NCBI GenBank assembly: GCA_947085185.1
Contig: CAMTVK010000016.1
Location: 1-43,179 of the forward strand
From: Candidatus Fraserbacteria bacterium
GTDB lineage: Bacteria; Bipolaricaulota; Bipolaricaulia; RBG-16-55-9; DRXL01
DNA: 43,179 bases
Reading direction: 5' to 3'
This document shows, piece by piece, positions 12,667 through 35,168 of this stretch. A program made the position numbers and the translations under genes. The notes beneath the pieces were generated by a model. That model did not search any database. It had not been told where the DNA came from and was given only the letters and a program-made list of their open reading frames with translations. Every line of letters starts with the position of its first letter. Position 1 is the first letter of the stretch.

Positions 12667-14349
12667 ATGACTGAGGGGTTGTTTGAGGCATTCCGAATTC
12701 CTGAGGTGCGGAAGCGTATTCTCTTTACGCTGTGGGTCATCATTGTCTTTCGCTTGGGGGCGTGGATTCCTGTGCCGGGGGTAGACCCCCAGCAGATCCA
12801 GGGGATATTTCAGCAATTGGGGCAGCTTGGGCAGTTCTTGAGCGCGTTCACCGGGGGAGCGCTGGAACGCTTCTCGATCTTCGCGTTGGGAGTTATCCCC
12901 TATATTAACGCTTCGATTATTTTGAGCTTATTAGTTGCGGTCATCCCCAAACTCAAAGAGCTCCAAGAGCAAGGGGAAGAGGGCCGCCGCGTCATCAATA
13001 AGATCACGCGCTACGCTACGGTGGGGCTCGCGCTCGTTCAAGCCGCAGGGACAAGCTATCTCATCTATTCTCAGGGGTTGGTGCAAGCGGGCCAGAGCTT
13101 TCTCGGGTTTATGTTTATCTCTATTGTGGCGCTCACGACCGGGACGATGTTTCTCATGTGGCTTGGGGAGCGCCTCACCGAGAACGGCATTGGGCGCGGC
13201 ATCTCGATGCTCATCATGGTCGGGATCTTAGCGGAATATCCGCGATTCTTTGGCACCCTGTGGGTCGAGATCACTAATAATCCCAATCCCATGAACGCCC
13301 TATGGTTGCCGCTGCTTGTGGGGATATACGTCTTAGTTACAGCAGGTATAGTGATGGTGCAGCTTGGGGCGCGACGCATTGATATTCAGTACGCCAAGCG
13401 CATGGTCAAGGGGCGCGTCTACGGCGGCCACAGCACGTTCTTGCCCTTGCAAGTCAATCAAGGGGGCGTGATCCCCATTATCTTCGCGGTAGCTCTGTTG
13501 GCTATCCCCCAGACGATCTTTCAGTTTGCCGAGCGCACCGATTGGTGGGTCAATATGACTGCCGAGCGGCGCATCGTGCTCGAAATATCTGGAGAGAGCC
13601 AAGAGGGGGATCTCTTCATGGACGTAGACGGGCAACTGGTGCAGATCTCGCTCTCTGGGAAGCAGACGAGCGAGCAAATCGCGAAAGCGATCGCTGATGC
13701 GCTCAACCGCCAGAAGCCCGACTCGGCTCAGACACACAGCAGCCATGTGATCATCCCCGTCGAACCCAATCGAGCCCCCGAGAATCCGAAGAGAATCTCA
13801 GTGGGAGAGACGGCTGACAAGCTGATAGCTCTCAATGGAGTAGGCCAAAGTGCTGTCGTGCGCGGCATCACGTTTGTCCGAGCTTCCGGCCGTGATTGGC
13901 TGAACGTCGCCGGCGATCTCTTAAACTGGATAGCCCTAGACTTATCTCGTGGGTACTCGCTGTATATGCTGTTGAGTGCGATCTTGATCTTCTTCTTCAC
14001 GTATTTTTACAGCGCGATTGTCTTCAATCCCCGCGATCTTGCGGAGAATTTGCGCAAGTGGGGCGGGTTTGTGCCGGGGATTCGTCCGGGCAAGCCCACG
14101 GCAGATTTCATCGAATCTGTTCAGAGCAGACTGCTGTTCCTTGGTGCGGTCTTCTTGATTATCATTGCGCTCTTGCCTATGATCATCACGAACATCAGCG
14201 GGTTGACGGCGTTCTTCTTGGGGGGCACCTCGCTGCTCATCGTCGTGGGCGTCGGTGTCGATACGATCAAGCAGATCGAGGCGCACATGGTGGAACGCCG
14301 CTACGAGAGCTTGATCTCCAAGGGCGCAACCCTGGGGCGGCGGATCTGA
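12667..14349 (+). CDS. secY: preprotein translocase subunit SecY with a large loop insertion
   Basis: SIFALGVIPYINASII, WLGERLTENGIGRGISMLI, GVIPIIFA, GFVPGIRPG, GGTSLLIVVGV; 560 aa. Confidence 0.98.
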   Translation: MTEGLFEAFRIPEVRKRILFTLWVIIVFRLGAWIPVPGVDPQQIQGIFQQLGQLGQFLSAFTGGALERFSIFALGVIPYINASIILSLLVAVIPKLKELQEQGEEGRRVINKITRYATVGLALVQAAGTSYLIYSQGLVQAGQSFLGFMFISIVALTTGTMFLMWLGERLTENGIGRGISMLIMVGILAEYPRFFGTLWVEITNNPNPMNALWLPLLVGIYVLVTAGIVMVQLGARRIDIQYAKRMVKGRVYGGHSTFLPLQVNQGGVIPIIFAVALLAIPQTIFQFAERTDWWVNMTAERRIVLEISGESQEGDLFMDVDGQLVQISLSGKQTSEQIAKAIADALNRQKPDSAQTHSSHVIIPVEPNRAPENPKRISVGETADKLIALNGVGQSAVVRGITFVRASGRDWLNVAGDLLNWIALDLSRGYSLYMLLSAILIFFFTYFYSAIVFNPRDLAENLRKWGGFVPGIRPGKPTADFIESVQSRLLFLGAVFLIIIALLPMIITNISGLTAFFLGGTSLLIVVGVGVDTIKQIEAHMVERRYESLISKGATLGRRI

Positions 14350-27300: not shown

Positions 27301-27351
27301 GTTCCAAGTTACAAGTTCAGAACTTGAAACTTCGAACTTTTTACTTGGAAC
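27301..27351. repeat. heptamer-periodic imperfect palindrome between convergent genes (possible bidirectional terminator)
   Basis: GTTCCAA GTTACAA GTTCAGA ACTTGAA ACTTCGA ACTTTTT ACTTGGA AC; GTTCCAAGT (27301-27309) pairs with ACTTGGAAC (27343-27351), inner AAGTTC pairs with GAACTT. Confidence 0.7.
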
Positions 27352-27884
27352 TGTATAAAGCGCGTCGTATTGTTGGGGTCGGTCTCGATCCCTTCGCGCA
27401 AGATCACTAAATGATAGCGCGTCGCTGCATGACGACTGGCAATAGCAGCACACGTCGGATCGCGCCGCTGCGCAATAAAGCGAGCCGCCCCCGCCGTATC
27501 ATAGAAACCCGCTCTCGTTACTTGAAGACCCTCAAGAAATCTTCGACACTGCGCCAGAGCTTGAGGATGGGAGTAGACCGTGCGAATTTTTTCTAGAGAA
27601 CTCTCTGGGATGCCCACAAGACAATGGCGCACCCGTATGGATATCTCTGCGCAGATCGAGATCTCTTCTGCAAACCCGCGCAAGAGCTCCTGGACTTCGC
27701 TGATGATCCCCGTCGTGGAGTTCTCCACGGGCAAGACCCCATAGTGAGCTTGGCCGGTGCGCACCCTCTCGAAAACTTCACGAAAAGTGCGACAGGGGAT
27801 CGGCTCATACTGCGAGAATTGCTGAGCGATCGCATCCTCGCTGTAAGCACCAAGCTCGCCCTGAAAGGCCACGCGCACGCTCAT
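27309..27884 (-). CDS. pheA: prephenate dehydratase, catalytic domain only (no ACT domain)
   Basis: VAFQGELGAYSE, GVLPVENSTTG, YSHPQALAQC, NNTTRF. Confidence 0.9.
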   Translation of the reverse strand: MSVRVAFQGELGAYSEDAIAQQFSQYEPIPCRTFREVFERVRTGQAHYGVLPVENSTTGIISEVQELLRGFAEEISICAEISIRVRHCLVGIPESSLEKIRTVYSHPQALAQCRRFLEGLQVTRAGFYDTAGAARFIAQRRDPTCAAIASRHAATRYHLVILREGIETDPNNTTRFIQFQVKSSKFQVLNL

Positions 27885-28144
27885 GAGAGCCCTTCCTGGA
27901 GACGTCGCAGCTCTCTAAAGATTTGCGAAAAGATCCGGCGGATCGCACGCTCGTCCAAAGGGCCACGATTGAGGGCACATAATCTTTGAAGGATCTGGGC
28001 TTCACGCTCAGGAGCATAGAGGGGCAGCCCACGGGTACGCTTCTCTCGCCCGATCTGAAGAGCAAGCCTCGCGCGCTCGCTCAACAGCTCTAACAGCCGA
28101 TCGTCTATCTGATCTATTTGGTGGCGCCACACGTTCAGGCTCAT
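27881..28144 (-). CDS. chorismate mutase (AroQ class, CM_2)
   Basis: LNVWRHQIDQIDDRLLELLSERARLALQIGREK, PEREAQIL, IFSQIFRELRRLQ; 4-nt overlap with the dehydratase gene. Confidence 0.92.
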   Translation of the reverse strand: MSLNVWRHQIDQIDDRLLELLSERARLALQIGREKRTRGLPLYAPEREAQILQRLCALNRGPLDERAIRRIFSQIFRELRRLQEGLS

Positions 28145-28154
28145 ACGTATCTTG

Positions 28155-28205
28155 ATTGAATCATGGCGCGCTGCCCTTGTCAAGAGGGAGCCGACCATTT
28201 ATGAT
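28155..28205. promoter_or_regulatory. overlapping divergent promoters (chorismate mutase / ABC-F)
   Basis: Minus: TTGACA (28183-28178)-17-TTCAAT (28160-28155); plus: TTGTCA (28177-28182)-17-TATGAT (28200-28205). Confidence 0.65.
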
Positions 28206-28213
28206 GAGATAGT

Positions 28214-30127
28214 ATGTCCCTGCTGAGTACTGAAGACCTGACCCATCGCTATGGTGCCGAAACAGTCTTTGAAAGAGTCTCGGTGCAGGTGCACCGAGGG
28301 GATCGCATTGGGGTGGTCGGCCTCAATGGCAGCGGAAAATCCACGTTATTGCGCATTCTCGCGGGCTTGCACGAGCCTTCCCGCGGGCGCGTCGTGCGCG
28401 CTCGTTCTGTGCGGATTGGGTATCTTGCACAAGAGCCTCACTTTGAGAGCAACGCACCACTCTTCGATGAGATGCTTAAAGTCTTCGCCACGCTGCGCGA
28501 GCACGAGCATGAGCTCCAACGCATCGAACACGAGCTCGCACAAAACGCTGCTTCTCACAGTCTCCTGCAGCGCTATGATGAGCTTTTGGAGAGCTTTCGC
28601 CACCGTGGAGGCTACGAGTACCAGAGCCGCATCCATCAGGTGCTCGCCGGTTTGGGGTTCACTGCGCACGATGAGACAAAGCCCATCGCGCACTTGAGCG
28701 GAGGGCAGCGCGCACGAGCGGCCCTGGCTCGGCTGCTCCTCGAAGAGCCCGATATACTCTTGCTCGACGAGCCGACCAATCACTTGGACATAGATGCTCT
28801 GGAGTGGCTCGAAGACTATCTTTCGCGATGGAAAGGCGCTTTTATTATAGCCTCGCACGATCGCTACTTTCTGGACAAGCTGGTGCAAAGGATTTGGGAG
28901 CTGGAGTTTGGTCGTCTCTATGAGTATCCCGGCACATATTCTGTCTATAGAAAGCTGCGCCAGGAGCGTCTGGAGCGCCAGTGGAAGCTCTACGAAGAGC
29001 AGCAAGAGTTTATCCAAAAATCTGAAGAATTTATACGGCGCAACATCGCCGGTGGGGACTTTCGCGCCAGTCAAGCTCAAGCGCGCCAAAAGATGTTAGA
29101 ACGACTCGAGCGCATCCCCAAGCCTCTCGTCCCCAAAAAGATTCACGTATGGATGGACGTGAAAAGACCCAGTGGCGAGCGGGTGCTGCGCGCTCGAGAC
29201 TTAGTCATTGGCTATCCTGGGGTGCCGCTGGTGCGCTGTAAAAGTCTTGCGCTGCAGCGGGGGGAGCGCGCTGCACTCATCGGCCCTAACGGCTCAGGCA
29301 AGACGACTCTTCTGAAAACGATCATGGGAGAGATCCCCCCTCTCGAAGGCGCTCTCGAGGTGGGACATGGCGTGGAGATCGCGTACTTCCGCCAAAGCCA
29401 AACCGAGCTCGAGAGCCCTGACAAAACCGTGCTCGAAGCTGTACTGGAGAACAAAGAGCAAACGATCTCAGAAGCGCGTACTTTCTTGGGGCAGTTTCTC
29501 TTCTCCGGCGATGACGTCTTCAAGAAGATCTCCGAGCTATCGGGTGGGGAGCGGAGTCGGTTAGCTTTGGCGAGGCTGGCGCAGCTGGGGGGAAATCTCT
29601 TGCTCTTGGACGAGCCGACCAATCACTTGGACATGGACTCGCGCGAAGTCCTCCAAGAAGCCCTGAAAGAGTACAAGGGCACGATCGTGTTCGCTTCTCA
29701 TGATCGGTATCTCATCCACGCGGTCGCTACGCAGATCTGGGAGATCCGGGATGGTGAACTAAAAATCTTCCGCGGGGATTATGAATCTTATCGGGGAGAG
29801 CGAGAGTCGAGCTCCTCTGGTAAGATCACCACAGAGCAGCGGAGGCGTCTCTCTCCTGGGAAGGAGCAGCGGTTGCGCGAGCGTCAGAGGGCGAAACTTG
29901 CTGCTCGTGAAGCCGAGCTGATGGCCCTTGTTACGGCACTGGAGAACGAGATCGCCCAGCTCGAACGAGAGATGGAGACGGCCAGCTCCGCTGGGGATTA
30001 CCAGCGGGTACACGAGCTTGCAGAGCTCTACCGTCAAAAGCGCCAAGAGTTAGAGAGCGCCTCGGAAGACTGGGCTCAAGCGGCCCAAGAGCTCGCGAAC
30101 TTTTCGAGGCACTCTCAGGGAGTATAA
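28214..30127 (+). CDS. ABC-F family ATPase (ribosome-associated, Uup/YdiF-like)
   Basis: Two NBDs ([44 protein letters not shown]), SHDRY, inter-domain linker, C-terminal coiled coil, no TM segments. Confidence 0.95.
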
Positions 30128-30327
30128 AATTTCGCTTCGTCGGCTTTGAAGCCGGCCTTGCTGTGCGTTCCATCACAGAAGGGCTTGTTCTTGGAGCCCC
30201 CGCAGCGACAGAGTGCCACCCACGGCCGATCAATCATGCTCTCCTTGCCAGAAGCGTCTACAAACCTTACCGGGCCCTTGATGAGATTGGGGCCGTCTTT
30301 CTTCGATTCGACGATCAGCTCAGCCAT
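30115..30327 (-). CDS. CDGSH-type 2Fe-2S protein (70 aa), probably also translated independently
   Basis: ATG 30327 preceded by [15 protein letters not shown]...[18 protein letters not shown]. Confidence 0.85.
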
Positions 30328-30789
30328 GATCGCCCCTCCTTCGGTTGTGAGATTTATTCTATCTGTTTTGCACAGCAGCTTCAACCCCTCAATATAGCTG
30401 CGCCAACCCAACCCACAGATCTGCGCCACACAAACGTCCTTGATCACAGAGATCCTTCGAAACGCTTCACGCGCGGCGATGTCCGACAGATGGACTTCAA
30501 CTGCAGGCTTCCCCACAGCCGCGATCGCATCGCGAATCGCATAACTGTAATGCGTATACGCGCCGGGGTTGATCACGATCCCATCAGCCCAGTGACGCTC
30601 CTCGTGCAGCTTGTCTATGATCGCGCCTTCGTGATTGGATTGAAAGATCTTCAGTTCAAGCCCATGCGCAGCCGCGAACTCTTCCAATCTCTTGTTGAGC
30701 CCTTCAAGCGTCATCGTCCCATAGATATGGGGCTCACGCTCACCTAAGAGATTGAGGTTGGGACCGTGAATGACGACAATGCGCTTCAT
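30115..30789 (-). CDS. aroQ: type II 3-dehydroquinate dehydratase fused in frame to a CDGSH iron-sulfur domain
   Basis: [40 protein letters not shown]-terminal [16 protein letters not shown]. Confidence 0.92.
30356..30384 (-). promoter_or_regulatory. internal promoter for the CDGSH gene
   Basis: Minus strand TTGAAG-17-TAGAAT, 28 nt upstream of ATG 30327. Confidence 0.6.
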
Positions 30790-32378
30790 AGGTGTTCCAG
30801 AGCTTCTTGGAGTTCAGGCTCGGTGAGGAGACTGAGCGTGGGGTCTCCGATACGGCGCAGCAACACACACTGAATCTGCCCGTCACGGGATTTCTTGTCA
30901 CGACGTATGAACTCGAGCACTGTGCGAGAGGACACCTGAGCTAAAGACGGCTTAGGAAATCGCGCGAAGAGCTGTTCGATGCGCTCCAGCTCCGAGGCGC
31001 TTAACCCCGCCTTAACGTGAGAGAGCCGAGCCTCGATCAGCATCCCCCACGCCACGGCCTCTCCATGACGCAGCTCATAAGCGCTTGCGGCTTCGAGGGC
31101 GTGCCCTACCGTGTGCCCGAAATTTAAAAATTTTCTGAGATGGCGTTCTCGTTCGTCCGCGGAAACAATCTCAGATTTGATGGCGCAGCATCGCGCGATG
31201 ACCTCAGAAAGCGCGTGCGGGTCTTGCGCGAAGCTCTCAAGCTTTGTCTCAAGCTGCTCCAAGAGCGCGGGATCGCGAATCAGCGCGTATTTGATCACTT
31301 CGGCCAGGCCGGACCAGACCTCGCGTTTGGGCAGCGTCACCAGCACCGTTGGGTCTATGATCACACAGCGTGGCTGATAAAACGTCCCAATGAGATTCTT
31401 CCCCAAGGGATGATTGATCCCGGTCTTGCCCCCGACGCTGCTGTCAACTTGGGCGAGCAGCGTCGTGGGGATCTGCACATACGGGACCCCCCGCAAGAAC
31501 GTCGAAGCGACAAAGCCCGCAAGATCCCCGATCACTCCCCCCCCCACAGCGAGAATCGTCGTCTGGCGGTCGCAGCGGGCTTGGAGGAGCTGCGTGTAGA
31601 GCATCTCTGCGGTCTGTAAGCTCTTCTGCTCCTCGCCCGCAGGCACGCTCACAAGAAGCGCCTCCACCCCGTTCCTCCCCAAAGAGCTCAGAATGACCTC
31701 TCCATAGAGCTGAGCTACAGTCGTATCGGTGATGATCGCGGCTCGCGCCCCCAGATGATAGTGCGTATAGAGTGCGCCTATATGCTGGAGCAGTCCCGGC
31801 TTGACCCAGATAAAGTAGCTGCGCTCGCCCAGCGCCACACCAACGATATGTGTGCCCCACGCGCTTCCCAACATCTCGCAGAGTGCCGCTACCGCTTCGG
31901 CAGGGGTACGCTCGTTCTCGACCGTGAGATCGGCAAGCTCGTAGCGGGCCTCTCGAGCGCGTGCTACCTCGGCAATCGTCTGATGTGCCAAGAGCGGACG
32001 CTCAGACTTATGTGCGCTGAGGCGCTGGGCTAAGAGTTCTGGACGGACTTTGAGATAGACACTGATGCCCGTGCGTCGGATGAGCTCCCAGTTTTCGTCG
32101 CAGAGCACCGCGCCGCCCCCTAAGGCGACGACGGCGTTCTCTTGTGGCACAACTTCGCGCAGAGTTTGGCTCTCGCGCTCGCGAAAGCCCAGCTCGCCTT
32201 CACGCTCGAAGATCTCAGCGATAGAACAGCCAGCACGCGCGACAATCTGCTCGTCTAAGTCTATAAAATCTCGTGGGAGGATGCGTGCCAAGAGCTTGCC
32301 CACCGTGCTCTTACCCGCTCCCATGCACCCTATGAGATAGATATTAGCGCCGCGTGCTCGCTTTAAGTTCTCGGACAT
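30786..32378 (-). CDS. aroB: bifunctional shikimate kinase / 3-dehydroquinate synthase (AroK-AroB fusion)
   Basis: [76 protein letters not shown]. Confidence 0.95.
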
Positions 32379-33147
32379 AATCGGTCAGCGCTTGCGGGGA
32401 GATGCCCTCGGCGATCCGTGCAGCAAGAGCGCTCGCCACGATCACGCCGTCCGCGCCCGCTTGAGCTACTGTATGAATATGATCTGGCGTCGAAATCCCA
32501 GAACCAACAGCTACTTTGAGGTCCTCCGGCAGCAGTGGCCGCACGCGCTCAATCAACGGCACGACTGTAGGCGCGAGCGTCTCGCTCGGCCCGGTCGTGC
32601 CAGAGCGCAAGACCAGATAGACAAACCCCGAAGAGTATTCGCAGATCTTCTTTGCGCGCTCCTTATCGGTCTGGGGAGTGATGAAAAAAACCCGCGCGAG
32701 TCCGTACTTGCGCGCTTGATTGACCCACGACGTCGCTTCTTCGATGGAGATATCGGTGATGATGACCCCGTCAACGCCGGCTTCGCTACACCGCCGCGCA
32801 AACGACTCTTCGCCAAGCCGGCAGATCGGGTTATAGTAAGTCATGAGCAGAATGGGGAGCTCAGAACTTTTGCGCAGCTCCTGCACCATCTGGAGAGCTG
32901 TGAACACGGTCACTCCTTGGCGGAGCGCGCGGCTATGAGCAGCTTGTAAGATAGGACCATCTACAATGGGATCAGTAAAAGGCACGCCCAGCTCGAGTAT
33001 ATCGATCCCACCGGCCTCCAAGGCCCTTATATACTCAAGCGTGCGATCGAGCTGCGGGTCCCCTGTCATAATATACCCGATGAGCGCGGCCTCACCTCGA
33101 CTCTGGACTTCCTCAAAGCGCTTGCTCAGTCGTTGGCTGAGTATCAT
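32344..33147 (-). CDS. trpA: tryptophan synthase alpha subunit (divergent)
   Basis: [38 protein letters not shown]. Confidence 0.92.
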
Positions 33148-34333
33148 AGTGTGTCACCGTATCTATATCTTTGTCGCCTTGGCCAGAGAGCGTAATCACG
33201 ATGATCTGGTCGCGCTTCATGCGCTGAGCTCGCTGCAGCGCAGCGTAGACCGCGTGCGCGGCTTCCAGCGCCGGAAGAATTCCCTCCAGCTGGGCGAGCA
33301 CCCGAAACCCTTCGAGCGCGTGCTCGTCGCTCACTGCGATATACTCCCCGCGCCCCAGCTTCTTATAGAGCGCGTGCTCAGGGCCTACGGCCGCGTAATC
33401 CAGCCCTGCCGCGATGCTATGGGTCTCTCGAATATACCCGTGCTCGTCTTGCAAGACGAACGTCTTCGCCCCATGCAGCACGCCCACGGAGCCCTGCGAC
33501 AGCGAGGCGGCACCGGCAGCTTCGACCCCTAAGAACCGAACTCTCTCGTCGTTGACGAACGGAAAAAACGTGCCGATCGCGTTGCTGCCTCCCCCAACAC
33601 ACGCAACAAGCAGATCGGGCAGGCGCTGCTCGCGGCGCAAGAGTTGGCCCTTGATCTCGTCGCCGATCACGCGTTGAAAGTCGCGCACGATCATGGGATA
33701 GGGGTGCGGCCCCACAACCGAGCCGATCAAATAATATGTTGTGGGCACGTTGGTGACCCAATCGCGCAGGGCTTCATTGATCGCGTCTTTGAGCGTCTGG
33801 GAGCCGCCAGTGACGGGATGCACTGTGGCCCCCAAGAGCTTCATGCGCTGGACGTTCATCTGTTGGCGTGCGATGTCGCGCGCGCCCATATAGATCTCTG
33901 CATGTAAGCCGAGCACAGCGCAGGCCATCGCTGTGGCGACGCCGTGCTGTCCTGTGCCCGTCTCGGCGATCACGCGCTTTTTGCCCATGGCGCGCGCCAG
34001 CAATGCTTGCCCCAACGCGTTATTGAGAGTATGAGCACCCCCGTGCACCAAGTCTTCTCGTTTGAGAAAGATCTGTGCGCCTCCGGCGTACTCCGTGAGG
34101 CGTTTGGCAAAGTAGAGCGGGGTAGGGCGCCCGCCGTAGTCGGTGTGCAGGGCCTTCAGCTCGCTTTGGAAGTCAAACCGCGCAGAGATCTCTCGGTATG
34201 CGCGCTCCAGTTCTTCGAGCGCCGGGATTAAAATCTCTGGGACGAACTGGCCCCCAAATTCCCCAAAGTGTCCGTCCTGGGGGAGCTCGCTCAGCTTGGT
34301 TGTGCTTGACCTGATCGGAGCTTTCGCAACCAT
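33113..34333 (-). CDS. trpB: tryptophan synthase beta subunit homologue lacking the catalytic Lys
   Basis: [28 protein letters not shown](T), [45 protein letters not shown]. Confidence 0.93.
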
Positions 34334-34386
34334 AAGGTCTCACCCTCTGAAGCAGCGTCTGTCATTATACCCGATAGTATGGAAGT

Positions 34387-34415
34387 TTGTCTGGGCGGTT
34401 TCGCCGCTGTACAAT
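34387..34415 (+). promoter_or_regulatory. probable leaderless promoter for the sirtuin gene
   Basis: TTGTCT-17-TACAAT ending 6 nt before in-frame GTG 34422; a divergent TATAAT for trpB lies at 34369-34364. Confidence 0.65.
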
Positions 34416-34421
34416 CTGAGC

Positions 34422-35168
34422 GTGAGAGGGCAGATTGAAGAGCTCGTCCAGATGTTTCAGGAAGCCCGGTATGCCGTCGCCCTCACTGGGGCGGGGGTGA
34501 GTACCGATTCGGGCATCCCTGACTTTCGCAGCCCCAGCACGGGCCTATGGGCACAGTATAACCCTCTCGAAGTCGCTTCTCTTGAAGGCTTTCGTAGGGA
34601 TCCCCTGAGGTTCTATGAGTTCTGGCGCCAACGGTTTGCTAAGTTAACCAGCGCTCAGCCCAATATCACCCATCAGGTGCTCGCCAAGCTCGAAGCGCTC
34701 GGGTATCTCAAGTGTGTTATTACTCAGAATATTGACGATCTCCACAGGCGGGCCGGCTCCAAAAGAGTTCTCGAAGTCCACGGCAACTACACGCGCGGAA
34801 TCTGCCTGGGGTGCAGAAAGCCTTATGCGATCCAAGAGATCTTTGAGAAACTCGAACATCATTGCGTCCCATCATGCGATGCGTGCGGGGAACTGCTCAA
34901 GCCCGACGTCGTGCTCTTTGGGGAGCTGCTCACTCCGGACTTCGATCAAGCTGTGATGGAGATCGAGCGGTGTGATCTCGTGTTCGTTTTAGGGACTTCG
35001 TTAGAAGTCTATCCCGTAGCCGGGCTGGTACCACAAGCCAAGAGCTCCGGAGCGCGTATTATTATTATCAACCGTGACGAGACGCCCTTCGACCCCATCG
35101 CTGAGTTGGTCCTCCGCAGCGAGCTCCAGCCCGTTATGGCAGAACTGCAGCGCAGGCTCATCGGGTAA
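34422..35168 (+). CDS. cobB: NAD-dependent protein deacylase (Sir2/CobB family)
   Basis: LTGAGVSTDSGIPDFRS, TQNIDDLH, EVHG, CLGC...CDAC, KPDVVLFGE, GTSLEVYP. Confidence 0.95.
   Translation: MRGQIEELVQMFQEARYAVALTGAGVSTDSGIPDFRSPSTGLWAQYNPLEVASLEGFRRDPLRFYEFWRQRFAKLTSAQPNITHQVLAKLEALGYLKCVITQNIDDLHRRAGSKRVLEVHGNYTRGICLGCRKPYAIQEIFEKLEHHCVPSCDACGELLKPDVVLFGELLTPDFDQAVMEIERCDLVFVLGTSLEVYPVAGLVPQAKSSGARIIIINRDETPFDPIAELVLRSELQPVMAELQRRLIG

Follow-up and report, generated by a model that had tools for sequence, protein, structure and literature searches.

Repeated natural loss of the catalytic lysine in TrpB proteins of Bipolaricaulota, with a candidate docking helix in the retained copies

The window analyzed here, a stretch of 43,179 nucleotides from a Candidatus Fraserbacteria genome of the Bipolaricaulota (contig CAMTVK010000016.1 of assembly GCA_947085185.1), encodes a tryptophan synthase beta subunit (TrpB) in which threonine takes the place of the catalytic lysine, Lys87. 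Natural TrpB proteins of this kind are real, recurrent and under purifying selection, and are apparently undescribed. A role independent of TrpA is probable. We lean, with limited confidence, towards the reading that the Lys-less TrpB is kept as a non-catalytic protein that docks onto a partner through one helix formed by codons 219-240.

A preliminary description of this DNA had reported Thr at the position of the catalytic Lys in an otherwise intact TrpB, and both parts of this statement hold. T102 coincides with the Lys of the GAHK motif when the protein is aligned with LBCA-TrpB and PfTrpB, and the equivalents of E109 (E124), GGGSN (G232-N236; residues 247-251), E350 (E357), and S377 (S383) are all present, as are those of S190 (S205) and D305 (D312). 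Among the further sequence shifts that had been pointed out, A112T and R379Q indeed go with Lys-less copies, but LDYAAVG and ALEAAHA are traits of the genus and also occur in the Lys-bearing genomes G003, G004, G011, and G012. In profile searches, the protein reached 567.7 bits against TIGR00263 trpB (cut-off 392.45) and remained below the TrpB2 cut-offs (TIGR01415, 187.4 versus 518.85 bits; PRK12391, 179.3 versus 366 bits). Its AF2 model (pLDDT 91.7) matched PfTrpB 5DVZ with a TM score of 0.90 and an rmsd of 1.3 A at 63% identity. The window TrpB resembles canonical TrpB1 proteins (TIGR00263; PfTrpB, 5DVZ; LBCA-TrpB, 5EY5) in its fold, its operon with trpA, and most pocket residues, but differs from them by the missing Schiff-base lysine and the lineage-specific helix 219-240. 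The coordinates of all features are compiled in Table 1.

Table 1. Features of the trpBA locus, in window coordinates
Feature	Position	Strand	Remarks
trpB (TrpB1 fold), 406 aa, Lys87 equivalent = Thr102	33113..34333	-	predicted pseudoenzyme
Thr102 codon ACT, PLP Schiff-base position	34028..34030	-	read from the sequence, matched by contigs
helix, codons 219-240 (K228, G229, R233)	33614..33679	-	DSSP on the model; lineage-specific; candidate partner-binding surface
sigma70-like promoter CAGACA-18-TATAAT	34364..34393	-	10/12 matches; 30 nt upstream of the trpB start
trpA	32344..33147	-	35-nt overlap with trpB; E49/D60/Y175/T183 equivalents retained; F212S, G234A changed
aroK-aroB fusion	30786..32378	-	downstream of trpBA, same strand; deleted in several trpBA-keeping relatives
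aroQ fused to a CDGSH iron-sulfur zinc-finger domain	30115..30789	-	profile search
sirtuin (CobB)	34422..35168	+	divergent from trpB; marker of the native trpBA locus across families

The ACT codon was spanned, with 0 differences and at a depth of 165-683, by Logan contigs from four of the six listed runs (X1-X4), which are contigs and not raw reads, stem from a single study, and include two runs from which the assembly itself may have been built. Contigs aligned from the two other runs (X5, X6) belong to divergent relatives only; they did not yield the codon and were left out of any statement on habitat or strain. In other genomes the Lys site is encoded by ACG, ACC, GCC, GCG, TCC, TCG, or AGC, a variety that a base-call error would not give. 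A sequencing error at codon 102, which had been called unlikely from the start, is ruled out by the exact contig matches and these varied codons.

Lys87 forms the aldimines and performs proton transfers, and betaK87T stabilizes closed Ser and Trp external aldimines (PMC9512447). Because these steps need Lys87, the window TrpB is not expected to produce tryptophan. The genes of its relatives carry the annotation 'tryptophan synthase beta chain', from which metabolic models would wrongly assign indole salvage to these genomes. An identical exchange at this position was reportedly engineered in Salmonella betaK87T (Rhee et al. 1997, as cited in PMC9512447; Banik et al. 1995). The Salmonella protein is a laboratory mutant, unlike the present case, in which the change is natural, recurrent, and maintained, and the pocket has eroded further after it.

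The genome of the window (G000; 1.72 Mb, 96.8% complete) contains trpBA without the upstream trp genes. Queries from relatives found DAHP synthase, aroA, aroE, and aroC in G000 but did not find trpE, trpG, trpD, trpC, trpF, or tyrA, and family searches confirmed the absence of trpC and trpD. A second trpB elsewhere in the genome had been suggested as a point to check; the assembly contains neither another trpB nor a TrpB2, the only other match being a stretch of 75 residues (37%) on C17. PLP synthase is present, and no Mtr/TnaB-type Trp permease was found in G000. Two TnaA-like genes are both under the TIGR02617 cut-off. In the gene on C2 the FSAKKD lysine is intact, and the product ends with LRHF, a motif of the tryptophanase type. 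The other, a TnaA/tyrosine phenol-lyase-like gene (L179:6704-8146, G000:C1), apparently lies inside a cluster of CO dehydrogenase/acetyl-CoA synthase and dehydrogenase genes, judged from ORF N-termini only. At the locus itself, trpB, trpA, aroKB, and aroQ form a chain of overlapping genes. All 12 trpB upstream regions that were aligned carry an unchanged TATAAT element, and the trpB leader is too short for an attenuator. AroQ measures 223-245 aa in several relatives and 145-150 aa in G004 and G012, and in G008 it is reduced to an 89-aa piece after trpA.

The loss of the lysine is not confined to this genome. The residue is absent in 34 of 120 homologues, where it is replaced by Thr (24), Ala (5), Ser (3), Pro (1), or Asn (1). 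Nine of the 13 trpB-bearing genomes of the window's genus and all three of the sister genus (g3) are Lys-less, and trpC and trpD are missing in all 12 Lys-less genomes of family f1 as well as in three Lys-bearing ones (G003, G011, G012). A true loss of trpBA in G001 is not supported, since guaA next to it was not found either and this region probably failed to assemble. In other families, six genomes carry two TrpB1 genes. In five of them the canonical copy is part of a trp operon and the extra copy lies at the native locus, close to aroK, the sirtuin gene or tuf, or following trpF. Where the canonical enzyme has Lys, this extra copy reads Thr in G019 and G027, Leu in G022, and Ser in G035. 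The copy in G028 is a C-terminal fragment 99% identical to P0290 (Ala at the site), its own site lying off the contig, and that in G025 retains Lys and is otherwise degenerate. All 10 copies with a required catalytic role carry Lys, versus 4 of 20 without one, a count that leaves out G028 and includes kin that are not independent. The lysine is shown to have been replaced repeatedly where catalysis had become dispensable, either with trpE/G/D/F/C lost or with a second, canonical trp operon present.

Trees calculated after removal of the motif columns require at least 11-12 changes at the Lys site, and a topology that unites all Lys-less copies in one clade is rejected (p-AU 4e-40). Within family f1 three changes suffice, the direction of which is not given by the tree, and some of them could be regains of Lys by recombination. 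At third codon positions, L078 (the one full-length close relative among the metagenome matches listed) and G002 agree with G006/G007 over the N-terminal half, in which the Lys site lies. The corresponding permutation test gave p values of 0.001-0.004 in four of nine triplets, and none of the three triplets with G000 as query was significant. Furthermore, Lys and Thr alleles coexist among proteins only a few residues apart. The trees, the shared third codon positions, and the coexisting alleles indicate that the Lys-less state arose several times and spread partly by recombination.

Despite the missing lysine, trpB is under strong purifying selection, judged by its substitution pattern. Pairwise dN/dS (NG86) was 0.041-0.096 in 11 Lys-less pairs, 0.047-0.069 in six Lys pairs, and 0.073-0.120 in the six of eight guaA pairs that were computable (two contained an ambiguous base). 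Tree-based values were 0.063 for the nine Lys-less genomes of the genus (dS 4.0) and 0.056 for the four Lys-bearing ones, and none of the 12 Lys-less family-f1 genomes has an interrupted ORF. Moreover, aroK and aroB have disappeared from the locus in G005-G009 and G013, where trpB and trpA remain between the sirtuin and an ABC-F gene. Nine Lys-less genomes without aroC retain trpBA, and aroB is absent in five of five Lys-less genomes tested, the genomes in these absence tests being 61-93% complete. Since trpBA stay where aroK, aroB, or aroC are absent, the selected function should be independent of aromatic biosynthesis, and we rejected regulation of the shikimate pathway as a common cause. 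The preliminary idea of a retained pseudoenzyme is thus borne out by the recurrent loss of the lysine in homologues, the low dN/dS, and the lack of a second trpB in the assembly, but its placement at the head of an aromatic-pathway operon fails as an account for the whole family.

TrpA is one candidate for the reason why a dead TrpB is kept. In the window's genus, the catalytic residues E49, D60, Y175, and T183 of TrpA are invariant over a dS of 4.6 in nine of nine Lys-less genomes, and the sequence motifs of the TrpA-TrpB interface are conserved in Lys-less copies. Elsewhere, E49 of TrpA is replaced in four loci (G015, G025a, G027a, G035a), and trpA is deleted beside a dead trpB in G022 and G028. 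The changes in TrpA run in parallel, with E49 to Q, V, or G and D60 to E in L047 (G025), L158 (G027), L160 (G035), and L046 (G015). In the loci with E49 or D60 changes both subunits are predicted to be dead yet are retained. For G019-G031, trpA shows a dN/dS of 0.28 versus 0.10 for the C-terminal part of trpB. Replacement of E49, deletion of trpA, and its relaxation where the dead TrpB stays argue that TrpA is not the common cause of TrpB retention.

We then compared sequence entropy between 35 Lys-less and 52 Lys-bearing native copies, dereplicated at 97%, with 60 TrpBs as outgroup. The active site is relaxed in Lys-less copies: entropy rises to 0.72 in the 109-115 loop (0.07 in Lys copies) and to 0.55 in GGGSN (0.06), and the D305 and S377-D383 regions are also relaxed. 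The segment 212-240, in contrast, tightens to 0.29 in Lys-less copies versus 0.61 in Lys copies and 1.02 in the outgroup. K228 and R233 are found in 100% of Lys-less copies (25% and 7% in the outgroup), and G229 in 32 of 32 (5 of 63 in the outgroup). Seven deep dead copies have 15 of 22 columns invariant in the helix versus 110 of 375 overall, whereas 200 random sets of seven active TrpBs had a mean of 8.6 (maximum 12) invariant helix columns and 168 overall, a comparison that is descriptive, as the helix window was picked after viewing the alignments and one family dominates the Lys-less set. Within the nine Lys-less genomes of the genus, the helix accumulated 22 codon changes and 0 amino-acid changes; therefore, the constraint acts on the protein. 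In the TrpB structure the helix presumably lies at the surface. Conservation at I227, L231, T255, and V260 could partly reflect a lineage-specific repacking of the core.

P0121-P0124 and P0290, the most degenerate copies, retain the helix with hardly a residue changed, although most of their pocket residues are gone. Two of them (P0123, P0124) carry C-terminal tails of 150-260 residues, rich in Gln, Ser, Arg, Glu, and Pro and with repeats. We considered these as a fused partner, but they are of low complexity only, with no Pfam domain. A search for the helix as a short motif in other proteins of G000 gave no significant match (best E 0.71). Erosion is also seen in sister genus g3, where E109 is replaced by Ala and GGGSN by GQGGS, and in P0126, P0127, and G025a, which are degenerate though they retain Lys.

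Our preferred explanation, docking through helix 219-240, would run as follows. TrpB of the Bipolaricaulota would already have had a second, non-catalytic role, binding a protein or RNA partner through this helix, for which the helix is an inferred binding surface. The second role would keep the gene once catalysis became dispensable, and the lysine would then be lost repeatedly. The oldest dead copies do show eroded active-site loops and a TrpA that is dead or deleted, with the helix nearly invariant. Loss of the lysine may itself be under selection. Tryptophan synthase without indole deaminates serine, which is harmful to Chlamydia (PMC11140210), and removal of the lysine would be favored if an active beta subunit did the same in a Trp auxotroph. 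An active TrpB beside a tryptophanase-like enzyme might, in addition, run a futile Trp cycle. Speaking against such selection are the degenerate copies that keep Lys and the fact that Thr is the commonest replacement also among scattered singletons outside the phylum (7 of 14). It is quite possible, though we would stop short of calling it probable, that the docking or scaffold role is older than the catalytic loss and needed across most of the order, so that TrpB became a pure pseudoenzyme many times. The end forms without active site or TrpA and with long tails (P0123, P0124) could organize an assembly containing RNA or protein.

Several observations count against this explanation. The PLP pocket and the TrpA site are constrained in the window's genus, and a pure scaffold would not need them. 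Over a dS of 4.0, 15 of 18 residues of the beta pocket are invariant in the nine Lys-less genomes, and the six amino-acid changes among 40 codon changes are all at A112, Q114, and D305; the invariant positions include the equivalents of H86, E109, T110, G111, G113, H115, S190, G232-N236, E350, S377, and K382. Given the invariance of the TrpA site and of these pocket residues, the window's own complex probably still holds PLP and an amino acid, either as a stabilizing ligand or as a sensing input. Moreover, Lys is retained in G003, G011, and G012 despite their lack of trpC and trpD, and P0126, P0127, and G025a have degenerated with Lys still in place. Finally, 11 Lys-less TrpB-like representatives lack the helix, and dead TrpBs can therefore persist without it.

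The constrained pocket could also mean that the protein is a ligand sensor, in which the Lys-less beta subunit, like the laboratory betaK87T, traps PLP-Ser or PLP-Trp in a stable external aldimine, closes the alpha2beta2 complex and passes on the amino-acid status, with the tryptophanase-like enzyme as one conceivable receiver. We regard this as unlikely, but not negligibly so, and it overlaps with docking through the helix if the helix is the output surface. The K87T exchange favors closed alphaR-betaR aldimine complexes (PMC9512447), and a TnaA-like gene is present in 29 of 29 genomes and in G035 versus one of four genomes of the trpB-less family f4, a co-occurrence that rests on four small genomes. 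However, no regulator gene adjoins trpBA, and the eroded pockets of the sister genus and of the most degenerate copies are retained all the same. Amino-acid sensing, one of the roles proposed in the preliminary description, is thus possible in the window's genus, whose PLP pocket remains under constraint, but does not apply to the oldest dead copies.

Alternatively, the dead beta subunit might only activate TrpA, so that indole is released from IGP in two-copy genomes, whereas in auxotrophs the alpha reaction would be reversed (indole + GAP to IGP) and serve as an indole sink. This has a direct plant precedent: in the TSB-like proteins of core eudicots, a dead TSB activates TSA to release indole (Florean et al. 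2025, PMC12727527). Like the plant protein, the window TrpB would be a dead TrpB/TSB kept for a non-catalytic role, and the motifs of its alpha-subunit interface are conserved. The intact TrpA of the genus, the E109A exchange of the sister genus, which is the same as in plant TSB-like, and the Lys-less TrpA-TrpB fusions found elsewhere (P0351, P0360) also fit. On the other hand, according to that paper, the plant lesions are the equivalents of E109A (Ala, Ser, or Pro) and D305E and not of Lys87, and plant TSB-like needs active TSA and IGP and coexists with an active TSB, whereas G000 has no IGP route and a sole trpB. The window TrpB retains E124, with Ala only in sister genus g3, and lacks the activating D305E change (D312 is retained), which among Lys-less homologues occurs in P0067 only. 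An active paralogue in an IGP-making cell does exist in the two-copy relatives, but relatives of the window, unlike the plants, include loci with TrpA dead (four) or deleted (two). As for the auxotrophs, neither trpC nor trpD occurs in any of the 12 Lys-less family-f1 genomes, which leaves them with no source of IGP, and the conserved helix would be left unexplained. We know of no IGP consumer for these auxotrophs. Taking these points together, we consider activation of TrpA rather unlikely, and the allosteric partner of TrpA that had been put forward earlier does not hold for the family as a whole.

A new chemistry, with another base or the substrate's own amine replacing Lys87 in a PLP enzyme, appears very improbable. 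It would agree with the intact pocket in the genus and with the parallel changes A112S, V191A, and D381E, which recur, but at least six residues occupy the site (T, S, A, L, P, N) and the erosion of the pocket differs among old lineages. The conserved lysines K91, K228, K324, and K388 also speak against it, since in the TrpB structure they are presumably not placed to reach C4' of PLP. Finally, a decaying remnant of the lost pathway under relaxed selection, or an assembly artefact, can be dismissed almost entirely: loss of Lys does follow pathway loss and active-site segments do relax, but decay is largely refuted by the dN/dS of 0.04-0.10 at a dS near 1 per pair, with uninterrupted frames, a conserved promoter and trpBA that stay where neighboring aro genes were deleted, and an artefact disagrees with contigs that match the codon exactly.

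A partial bacterial parallel is TrpAB of Chlamydia trachomatis, in which trpBA likewise outlive the upstream pathway and one dead subunit is kept; it is the mirror image of our case, with TrpA dead and TrpB salvaging indole (Michalska et al. 2021, PMC8376405). Here TrpB is dead, and salvage, which depends on an intact TrpB, is not predicted, since the Lys87 equivalent is absent. A full-text search of openly available papers found no natural Lys87-less bacterial TrpB. In the accessible part of a preprint describing the first Bipolaricaulota brought into culture, the only relevant mention is of a trpA within a gene cluster (10.1101/2025.11.21.689855). Tryptophan synthase is a textbook enzyme, and no non-catalytic role in bacteria has been described in the literature searched; within that literature, docking through helix 219-240 would, if true, be the first case of a bacterial TrpB with a function that is both non-catalytic and independent of TrpA. 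The proteins form a natural series from active enzyme through a single Lys-to-Thr exchange to the fully eroded pseudoenzyme, repeated across lineages. This series, with two alleles inside one population, would show moonlighting preserving a dead enzyme, and it singles out a specific helix of 22 residues as testable.

Outside the phylum, an exact-pattern search over 185,579 genomes, blind to Gln, Glu, Asn, His, Asp, or Tyr at the site and to divergent motifs, yielded 27 matches: 11 are of the Bipolaricaulota TrpB type, and the other 16 are scattered singletons. By this pattern, no clade outside the phylum shares the simple lesion. Fourteen of the 16 singletons align to TrpB; seven are full-length with the other key sites essentially intact, three are broken, and four are partial. 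With Thr so frequent among the singletons, isolated K-to-T proteins from metagenomes (P0011 and P0027, for example) may reflect errors. The trpB singletons L071, L052, and L075, with Ser, Pro, or Thr, come from a Methanoregulaceae archaeon, an acidobacterium, and Pseudonocardia. The reading frames of L071 and L075 are broken in two, possibly through faulty assembly.

Clustering at 50% gave 149 new representatives, of which 137 cover the site and 12 are Lys-less: one is of the Bipolaricaulota type, and the other 11 are degenerate TrpB-like proteins that lack the helix (P0329, P0344, P0349, P0351, P0360, P0370, P0383, P0395, P0401, P0402, P0411). Based on this helix-less set, which possibly represents independent TSB-like pseudoenzymes, dead TrpBs are more widespread than the Bipolaricaulota lineage. 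Querying the ESM Atlas with P0383 returned generic TrpB clusters only.

Besides the trpBA locus, the window encodes a free-standing chorismate mutase and, after it, a prephenate dehydratase of 191 aa without the ACT regulatory domain (27309-28198, minus strand). The first 19 kb are occupied by a ribosomal protein super-operon, which includes a SecY ORF (12667-14349, plus strand) that is longer than usual (560 aa) and matches the Pfam profile in two stretches.
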